Shown here in pieces: positions 8,683 through 17,603 of a stretch of DNA of 27,599 bases. The number at the start of each line of letters is the position of its first letter. Within the stretch, counting starts at the first letter, position 1. The DNA lies in NCBI RefSeq assembly GCF_003334405.1, contig NZ_QOWM01000029.1. One strand, 5' to 3'. Below the pieces are notes generated by a model that searched no databases, was not told where the DNA came from, and saw nothing but the letters and a program-made list of their open reading frames with translations. The position numbers and the translations under genes are program-made. Source of the stretch: Escherichia coli (GTDB taxonomy: Bacteria > Pseudomonadota > Gammaproteobacteria > Enterobacterales > Enterobacteriaceae).

Positions 8683-9075
8683 GTGGACGATGAACGGAAA
8701 AGGAAAAAATTCACACTTTATCTGCATCCGGAAAAAGCTGCAGACTTTCAAACTTTGGAAGCGATAGAGTCCGTTCCGCGTTCTGAGCGTGGTGAGCTGT
8801 TCCGGAATGCATTTATTTCTGGAATGGCGTTACACCAACTTGATCCTCGCCTGCCTGTATTGCTGACTGCCATTTTGAGCGAGGAGTTTTCAGCAGATCA
8901 GGTTGTAACCTTACTCAGTCAGACGACAGGATGGAAGCCTTCTCAGGCCGATATCAGAGCTGTGTTGACTGAACTCGGTGCTTTGCAATCTGCTGAAAAA
9001 ATGCCTCCTTCTGCTACTGATTCGGTGCAGGAGGCAATGAATGATGTGCGCCTTAAAATGCAAAAATTATTCTGA
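8683..9075 (+). CDS. parR: ParR (StbB) centromere-binding adaptor
   Basis: Small ORF directly downstream of parM. Probable GTG start at 8683 preceded by GAGGAG and overlapping the parM stop; product begins (M)DDERKRKKFTLYLHPEKA. Confidence 0.7.
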   Translation: MDDERKRKKFTLYLHPEKAADFQTLEAIESVPRSERGELFRNAFISGMALHQLDPRLPVLLTAILSEEFSADQVVTLLSQTTGWKPSQADIRAVLTELGALQSAEKMPPSATDSVQEAMNDVRLKMQKLF

Positions 9076-9079
9076 TATA

Positions 9080-9450
9080 TCAGAATGAAGCAATGGGGAT
9101 CTCAGTCCATTGTGTTGTATACGAAGGCGAGAGCATTTCCCGTTTCATTTGCCATTCAGGGGCGGTTCCTCGCCCCGCAAACCACACTTTCCCTTTTCCA
9201 GACTGGTTCAGTTCATCGAGTGTTTTCATTAACTTTTCGCTGTTTTTACGGGGCTGGATCTCATCAAATAATCCCGGCTGCGCTATACCCGATGGTGTGA
9301 AATCAGCCAGCATGACTCCTGCCTTCATATAGCGGTACCCTTCACGCCAGACATGGTTTAACGCTCTGCATGCTGCGGCAATAATGTCCCGGCTACCCAG
9401 GCCGTGCCGGCACGTTAACCGGGCTGCATCCGATGCAAGTGTGTCGCTGT
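9080..9450 (-). pseudogene. Y-family DNA polymerase (UmuC/ImpB/MucB-like) 3' fragment
   Basis: Minus-strand translation gives …ALNHVWREGYRYMKAGVMLADFTPSGIAQPGLFDE…WQMKREMLSPSYTT, matching the UmuC-family C-terminus (GYRYKKAGVML…MKREMLSPRYTT). No N-terminal catalytic region is present. Confidence 0.65.
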
Positions 9451-9592
9451 CGCCGGCCTCCTCACCCGGTCACGTTTCGTCGTTCCTCCTCCACGCGCTG
9501 CGGCTTCGGGGCCGCACCTGCATTCGTATGCGGTCGCCCGGTTACAGGTGCGGCACGGCCTGATGGAGGCCGCATGTGAGAGGAGAATTCCC

Positions 9593-10099
9593 ATGCCAAA
9601 CTGGTGCTCAAATCGTATGCATTTTTCTGGTGAACCAGCACAGATCGCTGAGATTAAACGACTGGCCAGCGGTGCAGTCACACCGCTTTATCGCCGCGCC
9701 ACAGATGAAGGTATTCAGCTGTTTCTGGCCGGTAGTGCCGGACTTCTGCAGACCACTGAAGATGTGCGGTTTGAACCATGCCCCGGACTGACGGCTGCCG
9801 GGCGTGGTGTTGTATCGCCGGAGAATATCGCGTTCACCCGCTGGCTGACACACCTGCAGAACGGTGTGCTACTGGATGAACAAAACTGCCTGATGCTGCA
9901 TGAACTCTGGCTGCAGAGTGGTACTGGCCAGCGTCGCTGGGAAGGATTACCGGATGAGGTCAGGGAAACCATCACCGTGCATTTCACCGCCAAAAGAGGT
10001 GACTGGTGTGGCTTCTGGAGTACCGGAGGGAACAAAAGGCAGGTCCCCGCAAAACGTCAAAACCGCGGCTCCCGAAACTCAACAGATGATGGGGGCTGA
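9593..10099 (+). CDS. Hypothetical protein, probably C-terminally truncated or fused
   Basis: ATG at 9593 preceded by GAGAGGAG. Product MPNWCSNRMHFSGEPAQIAEIKRL…; the last ~25 residues look like out-of-frame read-through, suggesting a junction near 10010-10030. Confidence 0.35.
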   Translation: MPNWCSNRMHFSGEPAQIAEIKRLASGAVTPLYRRATDEGIQLFLAGSAGLLQTTEDVRFEPCPGLTAAGRGVVSPENIAFTRWLTHLQNGVLLDEQNCLMLHELWLQSGTGQRRWEGLPDEVRETITVHFTAKRGDWCGFWSTGGNKRQVPAKRQNRGSRNSTDDGG

Positions 10100-10202
10100 A
10101 AACCAGAGAGAGGAGAAAGCAGGATGAGTACCCGTAATGAGGGAAAACAGGGACCATCACTGCCGTACATTCCGTCAGGAAGTTTTGCGAAAGCCATGCT
10201 GA

Positions 10203-10862
10203 TTGAAGGGGCGGATGTCGGTGATGGCCAGCCCCAACGGTAACCTGGATGAAGTGCATGAAGGTCTGCTGCTGCAGGCGGTCAGGGCCTCCTGGCTGGC
10301 TAAAAAGAACAGGGCGCGCATCGATGATGTGGTGGATTTCCTGAAAAACGCCCGTGATAACGACCAGTATGTCGAGTCACCGACCATCCGCAGCCGTCTG
10401 GATGAAATGATTGTCCTGCTGGATCAATATACCGCCGGCGGCACTTACGGCCGGTATTTTAACTCTGATGAGCCGTCCCTGCGGGATGATGCGAAAATGG
10501 TGGTGCTGGAGCTGGGCGGACTGGAAGACCGTCCGTCACTGCTGGTTGCGGTGATGTTCAGCCTCATTATTTACATCGAGAACAGGATGTACCGCACGCC
10601 GCGTAACCTCAAAAAACTGAACGTCATTGATGAGGGATGGCGTCTGCTGGACTTCAAAAATCACAAGGTCGGTGAGTTTATTGAGAAAGGTTACCGTACC
10701 GCCCGCCGTCATACCGGTGCCTATATCACCATCACACAGAACATCGTCGACTTTGACTCTGACAAGGCCTCCAGTGCTGCCCGCGCGGCATGGGGTAACT
10801 CCTCCTACAAAATTATCCTCAAACAGAGTGCGAAGGAGTTCGCGAAATACAACCAGCTGTAA
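10203..10862 (+). pseudogene. traC: Conjugative transfer ATPase TraC (VirB4 family) internal/C-terminal fragment
   Basis: Translation contains KLNVIDEGWRLLDF and flanking sequence resembling the VirB4/TraC ATPase region. Bounded by stops, with no N-terminal domains and no continuation. Confidence 0.5.
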
Positions 10863-11100
10863 CGGCGCAGAGTCACAGCCTGACCCTGCGGGATGCGCAG
10901 GGTGAAACGCAGGTGGTGCGTATTTCTTCTCTGGACAGCAGCTGGTTGCTGTTCCGGCCGGAGAAAATGCCGGTGGCAGACGGCGAGCGTCTGAGGGTGA
11001 CAGGGAAAATTCCCGGACTCCGCGTCTCCGGCGGTGACCGCCTGCAGGTGACATCCGTCAGTGAAGATGCGATGACGGTTGTTGTGCCGGGACGTGCTGA
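10863..11100 (+). pseudogene. traI: Relaxase/helicase TraI internal fragment (plus orientation)
   Basis: Plus-strand translation HSLTLRDAQGETQVVRISSLDSSWLLFRPEKMPVADGERLRVTGKIPGLRVSGGDRLQVTSVSEDAMTVVVPGRAE matches an internal F-type TraI segment, then loses similarity. Confidence 0.6.
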
Positions 11101-12128
11101 ATCCGGACACCATCCTGCATATTATCAGCCAGCAAGCTTTCTCCGTTACGGCTGCCCTGCAGGGCCACGAACTGCGCATCCCCGCTGCCCTTCACCCGTC
11201 CTTCACCACTGAATCCCCGCAGCCCGTTTCCGTCATCCGTGGTCAGTGGGTTCAGCCAGATACCGGCGGACTTGCCGTTACGGTCAAACGCCGGCAGTGC
11301 CACATACGGCTGCGGATATTTACGTCCCGGTGCAATAAACCGTGCCGGGCTGTCTCCCCCGGCCAGCCCTGCCTGACGGAGAACGGCACGGCCGGCCGCC
11401 ACGTCCCGCAGTTCCCGTGCCGTACTGAACAGCCGCTCTGCATTCATGACCTCCCGGTCAGCTTTTGGCTCCAGCACATCGTGGGCAGTCCCTTTCTGTA
11501 CGGCATTGTTAATGGCATCCGTCCAGCCCTGACGGTTATCGGTGTACACCTGCACATGCTGCTTCATACGCGACAGGGCCACGTAGGCTGACTCAAAGCC
11601 GGCCATCAGTTTCCGGTTACCTTCCGTGCCTTCAAGCGCAATGGCAAAGGTTTCACTTGCCCCCTGCGCACCGTGAGCGGTGATGGCATAGGCCAGGTCA
11701 ATATGTTGCTCTGCCTGCTCCTGGCCGGGGCGAATCTCCCGGGTCTGCTGTCCGTCCGACAGCGTGACACTGTCACCGGAAACTGCTGTCACCGTCCAGA
11801 CGCTGTTGGCAACATAACCGCGCTCCCGGTCACTCTTCGTGAAGCGCATCCGGTCACCGGTCCCCACCCTGATGGTGTCCGGGGTGTACAGTGTGACACC
11901 TTCAGCCACCGCCTCCCGGGGAGAAATCAGCCGCGTGTTACCTTCCGCATCCTGCAGGGTTATCAGCCCGTCATCCTTACTGATACCGGCAATCCGATGA
12001 TACACATTATCCACCAGGACAAGTGCGTCCCGATGTGTCTCCCAGGTGGAGAGACGACGCAGCTCCCCGTCACGTATATTCGCTGTGTTCAGGACAGGCA
12101 CCATGACCTGCTCTTTCCCCAGCTCTCG
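11100..12128 (-). pseudogene. traI: Relaxase/helicase TraI C-terminal-region fragment (inverted relative to the other traI piece and to finO)
   Basis: 357-aa minus-strand ORF ([29 protein letters not shown]…GSRNGESLLADNMQDGVRI) matches the F TraI C-terminal region and then diverges into non-homologous sequence before the stop. Confidence 0.8.
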
Positions 12129-12341
12129 CATAAAAAACTGCGCAGGGCGCTGAAGGCCATCACCCGTTCAGAAAGCTATCTGTGTGCCATGAAAGCCGGT
12201 GCCTGCCGGTATGACACGGAAGGGTATGTGACGGAGCATATTTCTCAGGAGGAGGAAGCGTATGCGGCAGAGCGTCTGGATAAAATCCGCCGCCAGAACC
12301 GGATAAAGGCAGAACTTCAGGCCGTGCTTGATGAGAAATAA
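12120..12341 (+). pseudogene. finO: finO 3' fragment (fertility inhibition RNA chaperone, C-terminal ~70 codons)
   Basis: Plus-strand translation [72 protein letters not shown] matches the FinO C-terminus. Upstream sequence in the same frame is the antisense of the traI fragment, so the 5' two-thirds of finO is missing. Confidence 0.8.
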
Positions 12342-12342
12342 A

Positions 12343-12375
12343 AAAAGCCTCCCTCAGGGAGGGGAGGCAGGGAAA
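12343..12375. terminator. GC-rich hairpin flanked by an A-run (putative terminator downstream of finO)
   Basis: AAAAAAAGCCTCCCTCAGGGAGGGG: inverted repeat CCTCCCT/AGGGAGG; on the minus strand the hairpin is followed by a T-run. Confidence 0.35.
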
Positions 12376-12471
12376 TAAGGCTTAAAAGGAAATAACTTCC
12401 GTACCCGAAAGAAAGCCAGTCCACTGAACTATTTATCACAATAATACTGACAACTAAAGGGGGGCAGAAAT

Positions 12472-12612
12472 ATGAATGGATTCAGAAACAGTTCACGGAA
12501 CGCTCAGGTCTGGCGCTGGCAGCGTGCCGGAAGCCGGGCCGTTATTCTGGAGGTCAGTGGACGCACGAAAAAAGCAGCCTTCATTACTCCAGGGATTCAG
12601 AAGGCTGAATAA
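12472..12612 (+). CDS. Small hypothetical protein (46 aa)
   Basis: ATG at 12472 preceded by a G-rich Shine-Dalgarno (AAAGGGGGG); product MNGFRNSSRNAQVWRWQRAGSRAVILEVSGRTKKAAFITPGIQKAE. Below the ORF-track size cut-off and with no recognised homology, so tentative. Confidence 0.25.
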   Translation: MNGFRNSSRNAQVWRWQRAGSRAVILEVSGRTKKAAFITPGIQKAE

Positions 12613-12811
12613 TGCATGAGATTTTCTTTTTTTAATATCCGGTCGGGCAGTATAACCGGACAGTTCTGAGTAGCACAGGTTTTTTTTTCGTGTTAAGTCG
12701 TGATTTTATATTTTGCGATTAATTTCACAAAATAAGGTGTTATTCATTGTGTGCTGCAATGTTCAGGATGCCTGAAATACAGGAGCCATTTTATCTGATA
12801 TGGAGAATAAC

Positions 12812-13273
12812 ATGAGGAAATATATTCCACTGGTATTATTTATCTTTTCATGGCCGGTATTGTCTGCAGATATTCATGGACGGGTTGTTCGTGTACTGGA
12901 CGGTGATACCATCGAGGTCATGGACTCACGGAAGGCGGTGCGGATCAGGCTGGTAAATATTGATGCACCGGAAAAGAAACAGGATTATGGCCGGTGGTCA
13001 ACAGACATGATGAAATCACTGGTCGCAGGAAAAACGGTTACCGTCACATATTTTCAGCGAGATCGTTATGGTCGTATTCTCGGGCAGGTTTATGCGCCAG
13101 ACGGAATGAATATTAATCAGTTTATGGTCCGGGCCGGGGCTGCCTGGGTATATGAGCAGTACAACACAGATCCCGTGCTGCCTGTCCTTCAGAACGAAGC
13201 CAGACAACAAAAACGTGGGCTCTGGTCAGATGCTGATCCGGTTCCCCCCTGGATATGGAGGTACCGTAAATAA
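12812..13273 (+). CDS. Secreted thermonuclease-family (staphylococcal nuclease-like) endonuclease
   Basis: Signal peptide (MRKYIPLVLFIFSWPVLSA) followed by SNase-fold motifs (VVRVLDGDTIEV, RIRLVNIDAPE, DRYGRILGQVY). Confidence 0.75.
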   Translation: MRKYIPLVLFIFSWPVLSADIHGRVVRVLDGDTIEVMDSRKAVRIRLVNIDAPEKKQDYGRWSTDMMKSLVAGKTVTVTYFQRDRYGRILGQVYAPDGMNINQFMVRAGAAWVYEQYNTDPVLPVLQNEARQQKRGLWSDADPVPPWIWRYRK

Positions 13274-13318
13274 AGCGATGGCAATCCTATCATTCATTTG
13301 TTCTTAGCGGGAATAAAA

Positions 13319-13528
13319 ATGGCAAAAACAAAACAGGAATGGCTGTATCAGTTACGGCGATGTTCATCAGTCAATACGCTGGAAAAAATTATTCATAAAA
13401 ACAGAGACAGTTTATCGAACAGTGAACGTGAATCATTTAATTCAGCAGCAGACCACCGGTTAGCAGAATTAATCACCGGAAAGTTATATGACAGGATACC
13501 AAAAGAAATATGGAAATATGTAAGGTAA
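13319..13528 (+). CDS. Hypothetical small protein (69 aa)
   Basis: ORF between the nuclease gene and the DUF2726-like gene; product MAKTKQEWLYQLRRCSSVNTLEKI…; weak SD. Confidence 0.35.
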   Translation: MAKTKQEWLYQLRRCSSVNTLEKIIHKNRDSLSNSERESFNSAADHRLAELITGKLYDRIPKEIWKYVR

Positions 13529-13566
13529 TAATTCAGCAATAATTAATTACCAGGAGCAGATAAACA

Positions 13567-14157
13567 ATGAAGCTGATTATTTTTATTCTTATTGTTCTGA
13601 TTATTGCAGCGTTACTTATCCGGATTATCCTCAGAAGTGTAAATCAGCATTCTCCTTTGCTGATGCAATTGCATGCGGCAGGTATACGGACCGGTGATGC
13701 AGAGCGAATACTGTCCAGCGGTGAATACTGGCAACGTCAGAAGACGCTGCTGACAGAAAGGGAGGTCAGTTTTATGAAAGGACTGTTCAGAATTGTGGAT
13801 ATGAAGCGGTGGTATCTGTGTCCGCAGGTACGGGTCGCGGATATCGTCCAGCTGAACGGGAATATCCGGCCACGATCACGCCAGTGGTGGCAGTTATTCA
13901 GGATGGTGTCTCAGTGGCATGTTGATGTGGTTATCGTTGAGCGGCGTTCGTTCAGTATTGTTGCAGCAGTAGAGCTGGATGATGCCAGCCATTTACGACC
14001 GGAACGCAGACGCCGGGATATTCTTCTGGAAGAGGTTCTGAGGCAGGCTGGTATTCCGTTGCTCAGAAGCCACGATGCCAGAAAACTGCTGCAGATGACC
14101 GGAGAATGGCTGAATACAACAGGGGCTGATCAGCAGTCACCGGAACATCGTAGCTGA
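13567..14157 (+). CDS. Membrane-anchored DUF2726-like protein
   Basis: 196-aa protein with a strongly hydrophobic N-terminal segment (MKLIIFILIVLIIAALLIRIIL) and a C-terminal region (WYLCPQVRVADIV…ELDDASH…RRRRDILLEEVLRQAGIPLLR) resembling the DUF2726 family as I recall it. Confidence 0.55.
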   Translation: MKLIIFILIVLIIAALLIRIILRSVNQHSPLLMQLHAAGIRTGDAERILSSGEYWQRQKTLLTEREVSFMKGLFRIVDMKRWYLCPQVRVADIVQLNGNIRPRSRQWWQLFRMVSQWHVDVVIVERRSFSIVAAVELDDASHLRPERRRRDILLEEVLRQAGIPLLRSHDARKLLQMTGEWLNTTGADQQSPEHRS

Positions 14158-14396
14158 CGCCTTCGCGTTGCTCAGTTGTCCAACCCCGGAAACGGGAAAA
14201 AGCAAGTTTTCCCCGCTCCCGGCGTTTCTATAACTGAAAACCATACTATTTCACAGTTTAAATCACATTAAACGACAGTAATCCCCGTTGATTTGTGCGC
14301 CAACACAGATCTTCGTCACAATTCTCAAGTCGCTGATTTCAAAAAACTGTAGTATCCTCTGCGAAACGATCCCTGTTTGAGTATTGAGGAGGCGAG

Positions 14397-14657
14397 ATGT
14401 CGCAGACAGAAAATGCAGTGACTTCCTCATTGAGTCAAAAGCGGTTTGTGCGCAGAGGTAAGCCTATGACTGACTCTGAGAAACAAATGGCCGCTGTTGC
14501 AAGAAAACGTCTTACACACAAAGAGATAAAAGTTTTTGTCAAAAATCCTCTGAAAGATCTCATGGTTGAGTACTGCGAGAGAGAGGGGATAACACAGGCT
14601 CAGTTCGTTGAGAAAATCATCAAAGATGAACTGCAGAGACTGGATATACTAAAGTAA
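14397..14657 (+). CDS. repA2: RepA2 / CopB transcriptional repressor of repA (RepFIIA replicon)
   Basis: 86-aa product [86 protein letters not shown] is near-identical to R100/R1 CopB as recalled. Confidence 0.9.
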
Positions 14658-14769
14658 AGACTTTACTTTGTGGCGTAGCATGCTAGATTACTGATCGTTT
14701 AAGGAATTTTATGGCTGGCCACGCCATAAGGTGGCAGGGAACTGGTTCTGATGTGGATTTACAGGAGCC

Positions 14770-14866
14770 AGAAAAGTGAAAACCCCGATAATCTTCTTTA
14801 ACTTTGGCGAGTGAGAAAGATTATCGGGGCTAACAAGAAACTGCATAGAAGCTGTTGCTCTATGCG
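14770..14866 (-). ncRNA. copA: CopA antisense RNA (copy-number control), complementary to the repA leader (CopT)
   Basis: Two stem-loops in the repA leader: a 14-bp stem CCCCGATAATCTTC…GAAGATTATCGGGG (14783-14829) followed on the minus strand by a U-run, and a second stem GCATAGA…CTCTATGC (about 14843-14866). Position between repA2 and repA1 matches IncFII CopA. Confidence 0.55.
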
Positions 14867-14880
14867 GGGAGTATAGTTAT

Positions 14881-14955
14881 ATGCCCGGAAAAGTTCAAGA
14901 CTTCTTTCTGTGCTCACTCCTTCTGTGCAACATAAGTGCAGGATGGTGTGACTGA
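14881..14955 (+). CDS. tap: repA leader peptide Tap (RepA6), translationally coupled to repA1
   Basis: 24-codon [27 protein letters not shown] whose TGA stop (14953-14955) overlaps the repA1 GTG start region. Confidence 0.55.
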
Positions 14956-15805
14956 TCTTCAACAAACGTATTACCGCCAGGTAAAGAACCCGAATCCGGT
15001 GTTCACTCCCCGTGAAGGTGCCGGAACGCTGAAGTTCTGCGAAAAACTGATGGAAAAGGCGGTGGGCTTCACCTCCCGTTTTGATTTCGCCATTCATGTG
15101 GCGCATGCCCGTTCCCGTGGTCTGCGTCGGCGCATGCCACCGGTGCTGCGTCGACGGGCTATTGATGCGCTGCTGCAGGGGCTGTGTTTCCACTATGACC
15201 CGCTGGCCAACCGCGTCCAGTGTTCCATCACCACACTGGCCATTGAGTGCGGACTGGCGACAGAGTCTGGTGCAGGAAAACTCTCCATCACCCGTGCCAC
15301 CCGGGCCCTGACGTTCCTGTCAGAGCTGGGACTGATTACCTACCAGACGGAATATGACCCGCTTATCGGGTGCTACATTCCGACCGACATCACGTTCACA
15401 CCGGCTCTGTTTGCTGCCCTTGATGTGTCTGAGGATGCAGTGGCAGCTGCGCGCCGCAGTCGTGTTGAATGGGAAAACAAACAGCGCAAAAAGCAGGGGC
15501 TGGATACCCTGGGTATGGATGAGCTGATAGCGAAAGCCTGGCGTTTTGTGCGTGAGCGTTTCCGCAGTTACCAGACAGAGCTTAAGTCCCGTGGAATAAA
15601 ACGTGCCCGTGCGCGTCGTGATGCGAACAGGGAACGTCAGGATATCGTCACCCTGGTGAAACGGCAGCTGACGCGCGAAATCGCGGAAGGGCGCTTCACT
15701 GCCAGTCGTGAGGCGGTAAAACGTGAAGTGGAGCGTCGTGTGAAAGAGCGCATGATTCTGTCACGTAACCGTAATTACAGCCGGCTGGCCACAGCTTCCC
15801 ACTGA
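14948..15805 (+). CDS. repA1: RepA1 replication initiator (IncFII / RepFIIA)
   Basis: Product (GTG start) [65 protein letters not shown]… matches R100/R1 RepA1 nearly residue for residue as recalled; 285 aa. Confidence 0.9.
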
Positions 15806-15949
15806 AAGTGACCTCCTCTGAATAATCCGGCCCGCGCCGGAGGCTTCCGCACGTCTGAAGCCCGACAGTGCACAAAAAAACAGCACCACATACAAAAAAC
15901 AATCTCATCATCCAGCTTCTGGTGCATCCGGCCCCCCTGTTTTTGATAC

Positions 15950-16150
15950 AAAACACGCCTCACAGACGGGTAATTTTGCTTATCCACATTTAACTGCAAG
16001 GGACTTCTCCACAAGGTTACAGTCGTTCATGTCATAAAGCGCCAGCCGTCAGCCTTACAGGGTGCAATGTATCTTTTAAACACCTGTTTATATCTCCTTT
16101 AAACTACCTAATTACATTCATTTAAAAAGAAAACCTATTCACTGCCTGTC
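15950..16150 (+). promoter_or_regulatory. oriR: RepFIIA origin region (oriR) with DnaA box
   Basis: Consensus DnaA box TTATCCACA at 15980-15988, about 175 bp downstream of the repA1 stop, followed by AT-rich sequence, as in R1/R100 oriR. Downstream GC-rich hairpin cluster (16320-16650) resembles the single-strand initiation region. Confidence 0.5.
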
Positions 16151-16905
16151 CTGTGGACAGACAGATATGCACCTCCCACCGCAAGCGGCGGGCCCCGACC
16201 GGAGCTAATTTAGTTACAACATTCAAACATAAACCCCGGAAAAACCCCGGTTCCGCGCAGAACTGAAACCACAAAGCCCCTCCCTCATAACTGAAAAGCG
16301 AGGCCGCCCCGCCCAAAGGGCGGGAACAACATCGCTTTTAATTATGAATGTTGTAACTAAGCAACATCATCGCTGTCAGTCCTCTGGCGGGAAGTTCTCA
16401 GTACACGCTCGTAAGCGGCCCTAACGGCCCGCTAACGCGGAGATACGCCCCGACTTCGGGTAAACCCTTGTCGGGACCACTCCGACCGCGCACAGAAGCG
16501 CTATCATGGCTGAAAGCGGGTATAGCTTAGCAGGGCGGGGATGGGATAGGTGAAATCTATCAATCAGTACCGGCTTACGCCGGGCTTCGGCGGTTTTACT
16601 CCGGTATCATATGCAACAACGGAGTGCCGCCTTACATGCCGCTAACGCGGCATCAAAAACCCTTTCTTCCCCAGTGATCTCTGTACTCAATGTGTATTTT
16701 CATTTATTGATGAAATTTGATATTTACGCAATTTTCCCGTTCTAGTGTATTTTATTCTTTCGGAGGCTATAATATGTTTAATGTGATTACTCACCCGCCG
16801 CACTGGATGAGCTGCTGGAATTACCAGACAATCTGCTTCGTGAAAACGATGAAGCATGGCTACATCAGTATCATGCCTAAACCGAATGTGGGTAATGACT
16901 CCAAC

Positions 16906-17409
16906 TTATTGATAGTGTTTTATGTTCAGATAATGCCCGATGACTTTGTTATGCAGCTCCACCGATTTTGAGAACGACAGCGACTTCCGTCCCAGCCGTG
17001 CCAGGTGCTGCCTCAGATTCAGGTTATGCCGCTCAATTCGCTGCGTATATCGCTTGCTGATTACGTGCAGCTTTCCCTTCAGGCGGGATTCATACAGCGG
17101 CCAGCCATCCGTCATCCATATCACCACGTCAAAGGGTGACAGCAGGCTCATAAGACGCCCCAGCGTCGCCATAGTGCGTTCACCGAATACGTGCGCAACA
17201 ACCGTCTTCCGGAGACTGTCATACGCGTAAAACAGCCAGCGCTGGCGCGATTTAGCCCCGACATAGCCCCACTGTTCGTCCATTTCCGCGCAGACGATGA
17301 CGTCACTGCCCGGCTGTATGCGCGAGGTTACCGACTGCGGCCTGAGTTTTTTAAGTGACGTAAAATCGTGTTGAGGCCAACGCCCATAATGCGGGCAGTT
17401 GCCCGGCAT
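16906..17409 (-). CDS. insB: IS1 transposase InsB (C-terminal part of the InsAB' frameshift fusion)
   Basis: 167-aa ORF with the IS1 InsB sequence (…[72 protein letters not shown]). Confidence 0.9.
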
Positions 17410-17603
17410 CCAACGCCATTCATGGCCATATCAATGATTTTCTGGTGCGTACCGGGTTGAGAAGCGGTGTAAGTGAACTGCAGTTGCCATGTTTTACGGC
17501 AGTGAGAGCAGAGATAGCGCTGATGTCCGGCGGTGCTTTTGCCGTTACGCACCACCCCGTCAGTAGCTGAACAGGAGGGACAGCTGATAGAAACAGAAGC
17601 CAC
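17328..17603 (-). CDS. insA: IS1 InsA (transposition inhibitor / N-terminal part of InsAB')
   Basis: 91-aa product [43 protein letters not shown]… matches IS1 InsA as recalled. Confidence 0.9.

Follow-up and report, generated by a model that had tools for sequence, protein, structure and literature searches.

What the genes between finO and repA2 of IncFII plasmids do, and whether they act together, was examined in a 27,599-nucleotide stretch of Escherichia coli DNA (contig NZ_QOWM01000029.1; referred to here as the window). The segment is an ordinary, already catalogued gene block of IncFII-type resistance plasmids, with the transfer genes on one side and the replication genes on the other. 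This block, yigA-yigB-rmoA-yihA, is a standard accessory piece of F-like (IncFII) plasmids, reaching from the traX-finO distal end to repA2/copB. The block itself is already known.

Layout of the finO-repA2 block

The following features were identified in and around the block.

12118-12341, + strand: finO 3' remnant, last ~224 nt (C-terminal ~73 codons); upstream border, outside the block
12347-12368, no strand assigned: GC-rich terminator-like hairpin directly past the finO stop codon (terminator scan)
12472-12612, + strand: ANR-family regulator gene remnant (yigA), 46 aa, from alignment to the intact L001 gene
12506-12646, - strand: Rfam RF02876 AS-pc02 match (cmscan)
12812-13273, + strand: yigB, SNase-family thermonuclease, 153 aa; an upstream ATG at 12800 gives 157 aa
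13319-13528, + strand: rmoA, Hha/YmoA-family H-NS co-regulator, 69 aa; 76 aa from 13298
13567-14157, + strand: yihA, N-terminal transmembrane helix plus DUF2726 domain, 196 aa
14397-14657, + strand: repA2/copB, start of the IncFII replicon; downstream border, outside the block ('replication regulatory protein RepA' in matching records)
14774-14863: CopA RNA (Rfam, 89.9 bits)
14936-15805: repA1, downstream of CopA RNA

All four ORFs (12472-12612, 12800/12812-13273, 13298/13319-13528 and 13567-14157) lie on the + strand, and all features are present where the preliminary description placed them, with the finO remnant upstream (a match of ~224 nt) and repA2 downstream. Conservation shows that the yigB, rmoA and yihA ORFs are genuine genes rather than chance reading frames; the first small ORF, in contrast, is a truncated remnant. 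Comparison with the loci L001 and L002 by blastn aligned finO locus positions 2280-2502 from window position 12118 onward, and upstream of this remnant an inverted traI fragment is joined, with traI aligning in reverse at 11100-11732. The hairpin past finO was called by the terminator scan on the - strand, where it is accompanied by a T-run; on the + strand it comes after an A-run.

The block is AT-rich, with 35-46% GC compared with 55-61% in its flanks. The gaps between yigB, rmoA and yihA are short (45 and 38 bp), the terminator scan predicted no + strand terminator between the block genes, and no + strand sigma-70 promoter was recognised ahead of yigB in a consensus scan. An operon structure may be read from this spacing.

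Two small regulatory genes, one of them destroyed

The preliminary description had reported two small ORFs of no assigned family. Both ORFs are present, and neither proved to be anonymous: one is rmoA, a member of the Hha family, and the other is the deletion remnant of an ANR-family gene. When aligned with the complete L001 gene (70 aa), the window yigA keeps 31 of 70 codons (the first 31 are intact), followed by a frameshifting deletion of 119 bp. The intact L001 orthologue passes the NCBIfam model NF033650 ANR_neg_reg (33.5 bits against a cut-off of 32, residues 15-65), whereas the 46-aa window ORF gave no NCBIfam match, including to the ~54-residue core of NF033650. The remnant is likely to be non-functional. 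An intact yigA would encode a small ANR-family regulator of the type that binds H-NS and AraC-type activators; ANR proteins bind H-NS (PMC5570504). A second verified carrier of the deletion was found in pMRGN1031 only. A count of 593 carriers was rejected, as the junction-spanning query joins its two halves across an intact gene. On the opposite strand, RF02876 AS-pc02, an antisense RNA to pHK01_099, matched at 78.1 bits (gathering threshold 40; E 3e-18); the match overlaps the ANR remnant in its 3' part, and the central portion of the model corresponds to the deleted segment.

The rmoA product (69 aa) matched NCBIfam PRK10945 Hha with an E-value of 9.6e-29 and 99.5 bits against a cut-off of 90, and a published rmoA primer (PMC3256949) matches 13323-13342 with one mismatch. 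RefSeq annotates the gene as 'hha'. RmoA would pair with H-NS to silence AT-rich plasmid genes, and rmoA of R100 is reported to modulate conjugation (Nieto 1998, as cited in PMC3256949).

yigB encodes a putatively exported SNase-family nuclease

The preliminary description had called this gene a secreted thermonuclease-family enzyme, and the domain, residues and N-terminus of its product agree with that description. The Pfam SNase model PF00565 matched yigB over positions 1-107 of 107 (E 8.2e-31). In an alignment to a PDB thermonuclease (E 4e-14), the motifs DGDT, the R in RIRL, D-A-P-E and YGR were aligned, so that the equivalents of D21, R35, D40, E43 and R87 of the Staphylococcus aureus nuclease are kept and T41 is replaced by Ala. 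T41 of the S. aureus enzyme binds Ca2+ via its backbone. With every catalytic residue retained, the product is a staphylococcal-nuclease homologue of the Ca2+ type. Its N-terminus, MRKYIPLVLFIFSWPVLS/AD, reads as signal-peptide-like: MRK is followed by 14 hydrophobic residues and VLS/AD, resembling a Sec signal peptide. YigB may thus be exported and act as a non-specific nuclease in the periplasm or in the surroundings of the cell. RefSeq lists 462-nt 'thermonuclease family protein' genes in the matching records; against the named NCBIfam equivalogs EcnA and NucI, yigB scored far under the cut-offs.

yihA encodes a membrane-anchored DUF2726 protein under purifying selection

A Pfam profile search matched residues 59-170 of the yihA product to DUF2726 (PF10881, E 1.8e-21). 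The DUF2726 assignment, an error in which the preliminary description had named as evidence against its proposal, was thus confirmed, as was its account of a membrane-anchored protein: residues 3-21 are strongly hydrophobic, with a mean Kyte-Doolittle value of 3.45. A hydrophobic N-terminal segment occurs in 50 of 52 family sequences, and the count of K+R is higher after the segment than before it in 48 of these 52; the count for the window YihA is ambiguous, with two before and one after. These sequence features show a single N-terminal helix as the predicted anchor at the inner membrane, and by the positive-inside rule the nuclease domain is predicted to be cytoplasmic.

In the AF2 model of YihA (pLDDT 94.4) the fold is restriction-endonuclease-like. 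The acidic and His residues of the predicted active site are invariant in the 52 family sequences (25-51% identity), and dN/dS values of 0.14-0.32 indicate purifying selection. Together with the modelled fold, these data suggest that YihA is an active, selected nuclease, whose Vsr-like Mg2+-dependent endonuclease domain would face the cytoplasm. The likeness of DUF2726 to known structures was seen by fold comparison only; at the sequence level, neither the DUF2726 protein nor the profile of its family could be linked to a solved structure, and the papers found to mention DUF2726 gave no biochemical data on it.

The block is widespread and is not among the listed maintenance requirements of pEC958

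A 2055-bp stretch of the block matched at least 5000 PLSDB plasmids, 2093 of the matches listed covering at least 80% of its length. Gene order is identical in pEntH10407, pEC958, L001 and L002, and the published annotation of pEntH10407 contains the IncFII backbone genes of the block (PMC2762410). Both the proposal that the block is a common IncF backbone feature and its expected synteny in IncFII plasmids were therefore borne out. In some records IS1 or IS3 breaks up or substitutes parts of the block. Over the longer interval from 8000 to 17500 of the window, no PLSDB record reached a coverage of 80%.

Two observations bear on the dispensability of these genes, which the preliminary description had named as evidence against its proposal. 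The block does not figure among the maintenance requirements identified by TraDIS of pEC958 (PMC4398462). Classic F lacks hha, yihA and most of yigB, so that almost the whole block is gone, yet it transfers efficiently and is maintained.

The slot varies around a constant DUF2726 gene

In lineages other than the E. coli IncFII one, DUF2726 is not accompanied by the SNase. Orthologues of DUF2726 (46-74% identity) hold the finO-repA2 slot without the SNase in plasmids of Salmonella, Enterobacter and others; in these slots a signal-peptide PLD nuclease is variably present, as is hha. The PLD nuclease is of the PLDc_2 (NucT-like) type and shares the slot with DUF2726 in L006-L009, L012 and L014 and as nucC in pBIC1a, where the homologous slot genes are weakly expressed (RPKM 11-35 compared with 643 for repB). 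As DUF2726 stays in place where the SNase is missing or substituted and hha is variable, yigA, yigB, rmoA and yihA do not look like one system; they are better described as a mosaic of separately acting genes, of which yihA would be the evolutionarily constant member.

This variation bears directly on the idea, along the lines of the preliminary description, that the secreted nuclease in the periplasm and the anchored DUF2726 nuclease form one cooperative, two-nuclease barrier against incoming DNA. In its favour, the catalytic residues are intact in both enzymes, the gaps between the genes are short with no predicted + strand terminator, and the PLDc_2 secreted nuclease found in the DUF2726 slot elsewhere resembles a non-orthologous replacement. 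Against this, DUF2726 stands without a nuclease neighbour in L010, L013, L016, L018-L020 and L021, the two contexts with inovirus prophages (L022-L025) likewise gave no call of one, and the records H19 and H20 have IS1 where the SNase would be, with no SNase among the features under the match and the rest of the block kept. YigB and YihA are moreover predicted in different compartments, and no PADLOC system pairs SNase and DUF2726 domains. We consider such a barrier improbable. In PADLOC-DB 2.0 no model matched the DUF2726 protein, the SNase gave a domain-level match to the candidate 'SNc+LTD' model only, and the Hha match was insignificant.

A toxin-antitoxin pairing of DUF2726 with a small upstream partner was also considered and rejected: the overlapping upstream ORFs differ from lineage to lineage and match no family, those of L006 and L014 being related to each other and unrelated to that of L018 or to Hha.

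Another reading is that the block is mainly regulatory 'stealth' cargo, in which RmoA (with H-NS) and ANR tune plasmid and host genes, and the nucleases are passengers linked to the replicon. The reported effect of rmoA on R100 conjugation (Nieto 1998, as cited in PMC3256949), the binding of H-NS by ANR proteins, the AT-richness of the region and the weak expression of the slot genes in pBIC1a are all in line with it. The ANR gene is dead in the window, however, hha is missing from many orthologous slots, and DUF2726 is kept under purifying selection, which makes a mainly regulatory block rather unlikely.

DUF2726 homologues recur in transfer operons and inoviruses

At least 5000 PLSDB plasmids encode a DUF2726 homologue, and among the matches listed 4150 are predicted to be conjugative. 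In Serratia the gene lies within an F-type tra operon, between traF and trbB, and in L021 it directly follows traI. Homologues also adjoin integrated inoviruses with differing chromosomal flanks. In IMG/VR, 62 of 80 loci with a DUF2726 homologue carry a Zot-like gene, a link based on this viral database and a jackhmmer Zot call rather than on curated annotation; most of the contigs are 4-16 kb, and 54 of 70 viral homologues have the N-terminal hydrophobic segment. A tblastn search of GenBank phages with the window DUF2726 protein gave no match, so the inovirus link rests on the IMG/VR contigs and the prophage contexts; the inovirus-adjacent locus L022 had no match in E. coli complete genomes. 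Eleven context look-ups included three short, uninformative contigs and one chromosomal locus with no mobile-element genes in view; P0238, P0210 and P0196 were two short contigs and one such chromosomal locus. This recurrence of a TM-anchored DUF2726 protein with a Vsr-like fold in F-type transfer operons and inovirus-like contigs is a new lead, and it fits, without proving, a possible exclusion role at the membrane.

The same contexts would suit an enzyme that serves its own element, acting at the membrane to process, repair or resolve transferred or rolling-circle DNA as the element conjugates, is extruded as phage or becomes established. yihA runs in the direction of the tra genes in every case and lies within the tra operon or at its distal end; inoviruses are likewise rolling-circle replicators that export ssDNA at the membrane; and Vsr-family enzymes are repair nickases (PMC3424549). 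A role in own-DNA metabolism is nonetheless unlikely in our estimation, given that classic F transfers efficiently without yihA, that the homologue is missing from many inoviruses and, at the tblastn level, from GenBank phage records, and that yihA falls outside the maintenance requirements of pEC958 (PMC4398462).

A proposed role for YihA

On balance, we slightly favour a reading in which the four slot genes act separately and yihA encodes a membrane-tethered nuclease with a role in exclusion or immunity. The membrane tether, the predicted cytoplasmic-facing domain and the homologues in transfer operons and filamentous phages suggest that YihA would cut DNA at the inner membrane face, its target most likely being incoming foreign DNA. 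Candidate substrates are the T-strand of a competing plasmid and the genome of a filamentous phage during its conversion to duplex; cutting such DNA is what leads us to infer an exclusion or immunity function. Several observations speak against it: classic F lacks yihA, no PADLOC model covers it, TraDIS of pEC958 does not list it and the pBIC1a slot genes are weakly expressed. F-like plasmids also already own dedicated exclusion proteins, TraS and TraT.

A broader and more tentative possibility, which we regard as doubtful, is that elements which pass ssDNA through the inner membrane (F-type conjugative plasmids and inoviruses) have their own accessory family in the membrane-tethered DUF2726 nucleases, which would cut rival incoming DNA and provide exclusion or immunity at the cytoplasmic face. 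Pilus-specific filamentous phages that attack cells with a plasmid would be possible targets, and such a layer of competition between plasmids and phages is absent from current defence catalogues.

The segment in the window belongs to the routine IncFII backbone, and its genes can be labelled with confidence: an ANR remnant, a thermonuclease, RmoA/Hha and a DUF2726 nuclease. Among sequenced plasmids of enterobacteria, at least 5000, most of them conjugative and associated with resistance or virulence, encode this conserved, selected and membrane-anchored predicted nuclease, and the same architecture occurs in filamentous phages. If YihA does act in exclusion or immunity, it would bear on the coexistence of plasmids and phages in clinical Enterobacteriaceae.

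Comparison with known systems

The closest relative of the block as a whole is the R100/NR1-type finO-repA2 segment, as in pEntH10407, pEC958 and thousands of RefSeq plasmids, with the same genes, order and orientation and 97-99.5% nucleotide identity. The window differs from it by the 119-bp deletion in the ANR gene yigA, shared with pMRGN1031, and by a finO reduced to its 3' end that abuts the inverted traI fragment. Like RmoA of R100 in the Hha/YmoA family, the window protein has 69 aa, lies above the Hha cut-off and retains the rmoA primer site; no difference from RmoA of R100 was detected with the Hha profile and the primer site. yigB shares the PF00565 domain and the D21, R35, D40, E43 and R87 equivalents with staphylococcal nuclease, and differs from it in its ~30% identity, the Ala at the T41 equivalent and a putative Gram-negative signal peptide. 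The secreted PLD nucleases (NucT-like, PF13091) of F-like plasmids from Enterobacter, Salmonella and Klebsiella share with the window SNase the slot beside DUF2726/repA2 and carry a signal peptide, but have an unrelated fold and are not homologous to it. The closest known branch to YihA is the Vsr/DUF559/I-Bth0305I group of PD-(D/E)xK nucleases (PDB 1cw0, 3hrl and 3r3p), from which YihA is set apart by its N-terminal membrane anchor and ~50 extra helical residues.

Organization and distribution of the finO-repA2 block

Four co-oriented open reading frames were found between the finO remnant and the replicon, as the preliminary description had placed them, and both boundaries were confirmed.

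12472-12612, + strand, ANR-remnant ORF (yigA), 46 aa
12800 or 12812-13273, + strand, thermonuclease ORF (yigB), 157 or 153 aa, two possible starts
13298 or 13319-13528, + strand, Hha-family ORF (rmoA), 76 or 69 aa, two possible starts
13567-14157, + strand, DUF2726 ORF (yihA), 196 aa
12118-12341, finO 3' remnant, upstream boundary, aligned with the final ~224 nt of the gene
14397-14657, repA2/copB, downstream boundary
14774-14863, CopA antisense RNA (Rfam, 89.9 bits)
14936-15805, repA1, downstream of the block

The block had been taken for a common IncF backbone feature, and database searches bore this out. Its 2055-bp interval matched at least 5000 PLSDB plasmids, at least 2093 of them over at least 80% of its length, and at least 3880 of these plasmids were predicted to be conjugative. 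Hosts among the PLSDB matches listed were mostly Escherichia, Klebsiella, Shigella and Salmonella. The GC content of the block segment was 35-46% compared with 55-61% in the flanks, an AT-rich composition that we infer to be typical of H-NS-silenced DNA.

The surroundings were less regular. The finO remnant is preceded in the alignment by an inverted traI fragment (C-terminal part, - strand, about 11058-12131), which abuts it at about 12118, and an ORF fragment at 10203-10862 is, by eye, presumably TraC-like. The transfer region at 10203-12341 is badly rearranged, and the replicon is probably not self-transmissible. No PLSDB plasmid covered 80% or more of window positions 8000-17500, so the arrangement seems unusual. 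Just downstream of repA1 and the origin, a 167-aa ORF (16906-17409, - strand), which we take by eye to resemble the IS1 transposase InsB, suggests an IS1 boundary of the replicon segment.

Regulatory genes and the secreted nuclease

The two small ORFs of the preliminary description exist where it placed them, but their identities had been missed: one belongs to the Hha family and the other is an ANR remnant. The rmoA product (13319-13528) scored 99.5 bits against NCBIfam PRK10945 (cut-off 90), RefSeq names the gene at this position hha in matching plasmids, and a published rmoA primer matched at 13323-13342 with one mismatch. In R100, rmoA encodes a 69-aa Hha homologue with a reported effect on conjugation (PMC3256949, citing Nieto et al. 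1998).

The ORF at 12472-12612 is the 5' end of a gene named 'ANR family transcriptional regulator' in RefSeq. The intact 70-aa protein, encoded by plasmid locus L001, scored 33.5 bits against NCBIfam NF033650 (cut-off 32; residues 15-65); the 46-aa ORF gave no family match in the profile search. A frame-shifting 119-bp deletion follows codon 31, the same deletion is present in pMRGN1031, and the ORF is most reasonably treated as a pseudogene. The yigA gene occurs in at least three lengths: the intact form, the 119-bp deletion (window and pMRGN1031) and a shorter form in classic F, which differs from that of the window and leaves a 62-aa ORF. The variable spot lies at window 12564/12565, L001 2731-2849 and classic F locus L110 1653-1703, with no obvious repeat at the ends of the deletion. 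On the opposite strand, overlapping the remnant, Rfam RF02876 (AS-pc02) matched at 12646-12506 (-) with 78.1 bits; the deletion covers the middle of the model. AS-pc02 is an antisense RNA to pHK01_099 from the IncFII plasmid pHK01 (Rfam RF02876) and has been found in E. coli vesicles by RT-PCR (PMC12370729). Known binding partners of ANR proteins are H-NS and AraC-type activators (PMC5570504). On the basis of this literature, RmoA would tune the expression of AT-rich plasmid DNA together with H-NS, and ANR, where intact, would act on H-NS in the same tuning.

Profile searches upheld the earlier assignment of both the nuclease and the DUF2726 protein. The product of yigB (12812-13273; so named in older annotations, PMC3438092) is a staphylococcal-nuclease homologue (Pfam PF00565, 8.2e-31; PDB thermonuclease, 4e-14). 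In the alignment with the PDB thermonuclease, the equivalents of D21, R35, D40, E43 and R87 are kept and T41 is Ala. Its N-terminus (MRK, a 14-residue hydrophobic run and VLS/AD) looks like a Sec signal peptide; judging from these residues and this signal sequence, YigB would be an exported Ca2+-type non-specific nuclease.

The DUF2726 protein

YihA, as the gene product was earlier named, has been mis-annotated in some papers as a 'helicase' or 'cell division GTPase'. It matched Pfam PF10881 (1.8e-21) and REase_MTES_1575 (1.7e-4), and 4595 relatives were found at E<=1e-3 among 1.84 billion representative proteins. Across 52 full-length relatives (25-51% identity), E66, V88, R89, D92, H118, D120 and E136 were invariant, and F111, D138, D139, H142, R147, R150 and D151 were at least 90% conserved. 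No solved structure was detectable by sequence; an AlphaFold2 model built from the same alignment reached a pLDDT of 94.4. The strongly hydrophobic N-terminal segment of YihA has a counterpart in 50 of the 52 relatives, and in 48 of the 52 the K+R count is higher after it than before (means 3.9 versus 1.1). This bias, a heuristic whose count is ambiguous for the window protein alone, points to an N-out/C-in orientation across the family, which would place the nuclease domain on the cytoplasmic side. YihA would be an inner-membrane-tethered, Vsr-like putative endonuclease. At least 5000 PLSDB plasmids encode such a TM-DUF2726 homologue, at least 4150 of them predicted to be conjugative.

Comparison with same-slot orthologues gave dN/dS values of 0.14 (Salmonella), 0.21 (Enterobacter) and 0.32 (plasmid locus L016), which indicates purifying selection on yihA. 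Passenger status is one of the rival readings of YihA. In pEC958 (order ANR-IS1-thermonuclease-hha-DUF2726-repA2), TraDIS identified only nine elements needed for maintenance, none in the block (PMC4398462). Classic F (NC_002483; L110 1258-3392) is a natural deletion of the block: it retains an ANR-like remnant and the first 29 SNase codons, followed by hok/srnB, with no hha and no DUF2726. The block is therefore unnecessary for F-type transfer, replication and maintenance under laboratory conditions. In pBIC1a, expression of the homologous genes of the slot was low (RPKM 11-35 versus 643 for repB).

Variation of the slot around DUF2726

DUF2726 orthologues lie between traX/finO and repA2 in plasmids of Enterobacter (L006-L009), Salmonella (L010-L013) and others (L014-L017), and SNase was absent from all of these slots. 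In many of them the space between DUF2726 and repA2 is instead taken by a NucT-like PLDc_2 nuclease that has a signal peptide (L006-L009, L012 and L014; e.g. L006 7027-7581). In E. coli IncFII plasmids SNase lies upstream of DUF2726, unlike the PLD nuclease. PLD may be a non-orthologous replacement of the secreted nuclease, which in either fold is a frequent yet optional neighbour of DUF2726. Klebsiella pBIC1a has yihA and nucC, some slots read finO-DUF2726-repA2 only, and Salmonella loci carry hha at a different position. In plasmid locus L021 (1886-2678), DUF2726 directly follows traI and hha overlaps its 3' end; in the window hha lies upstream, so that the two genes are neighbours in two arrangements. 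In Serratia marcescens plasmids (L018-L020), a 40%-identical homologue (5001-5567) sits inside a type-F transfer operon, flanked by traF and trbB and overlapping each neighbour by 4 bp. DUF2726 was co-oriented with tra genes in every context examined.

IS1/IS3 insertions recur in the block, between ANR and SNase or replacing SNase (pEC958, L005 958-1655; PLSDB records H13, H19 and H20), a sign that natural plasmids lose the SNase portion easily. The preliminary description had suggested that the nuclease and the membrane protein could act in exclusion or defence against incoming DNA; a cooperative barrier of SNase and YihA is a rival reading. Since the contexts vary while DUF2726 itself persists in the slot, the best-supported reading is that the block is not one system but four independent accessory genes.

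Association with filamentous phages

Two more remote TM-DUF2726 proteins, which share 37% and 36% identity with YihA by phmmer and 32% and 33% in the 52-relative alignment, adjoin integrated filamentous prophages (L022-L025) carrying Zot, gp8 coat protein, Rep_trans and secretin. The chromosomal flanks of the two prophages differ, so the DUF2726 gene moves together with the phage. Scanning IMG/VR turned up 116 loci that encode DUF2726 relatives, of which 80 were kept (L026-L105; mostly 4-16 kb contigs). A Zot-like ORF, called by jackhmmer with the two prophage Zot proteins as seeds, was present in 62 of the 80; the same search matched zero plasmid loci. An N-terminal hydrophobic segment was found in 54 of 70 viral homologues. 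Such a nuclease is absent from the main text of a large inovirus survey (PMC6813254), and none of the papers found to mention DUF2726 deals with plasmid transfer or inoviruses.

Common to F-type plasmids and inoviruses is the movement of single-stranded DNA across the inner membrane, and conjugative pili are the receptors of Ff-type inoviruses. For YihA we favour, with low confidence, an exclusion or immunity role in which it would cut rival incoming DNA at the membrane; PADLOC had no model matching YihA. Alternatively, YihA would handle DNA processing of its own element, a reading to be weighed alongside its place among transfer genes and its travel with phages. A toxin-antitoxin reading was tried and failed.

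Relation to known systems

What remains of interest, so far a lead open to testing and not yet a finding, is a widespread, uncharacterised and putative TM-DUF2726 nuclease with a link to inoviruses. The block itself is already known, because it is the same as the yigA-yigB-rmoA-yihA segment of R100-type IncFII plasmids, was annotated with the same gene order in pEntH10407 in 2009, and recurs across thousands of RefSeq entries. The ANR deletion and the truncation of finO are all that sets the window apart from that segment.
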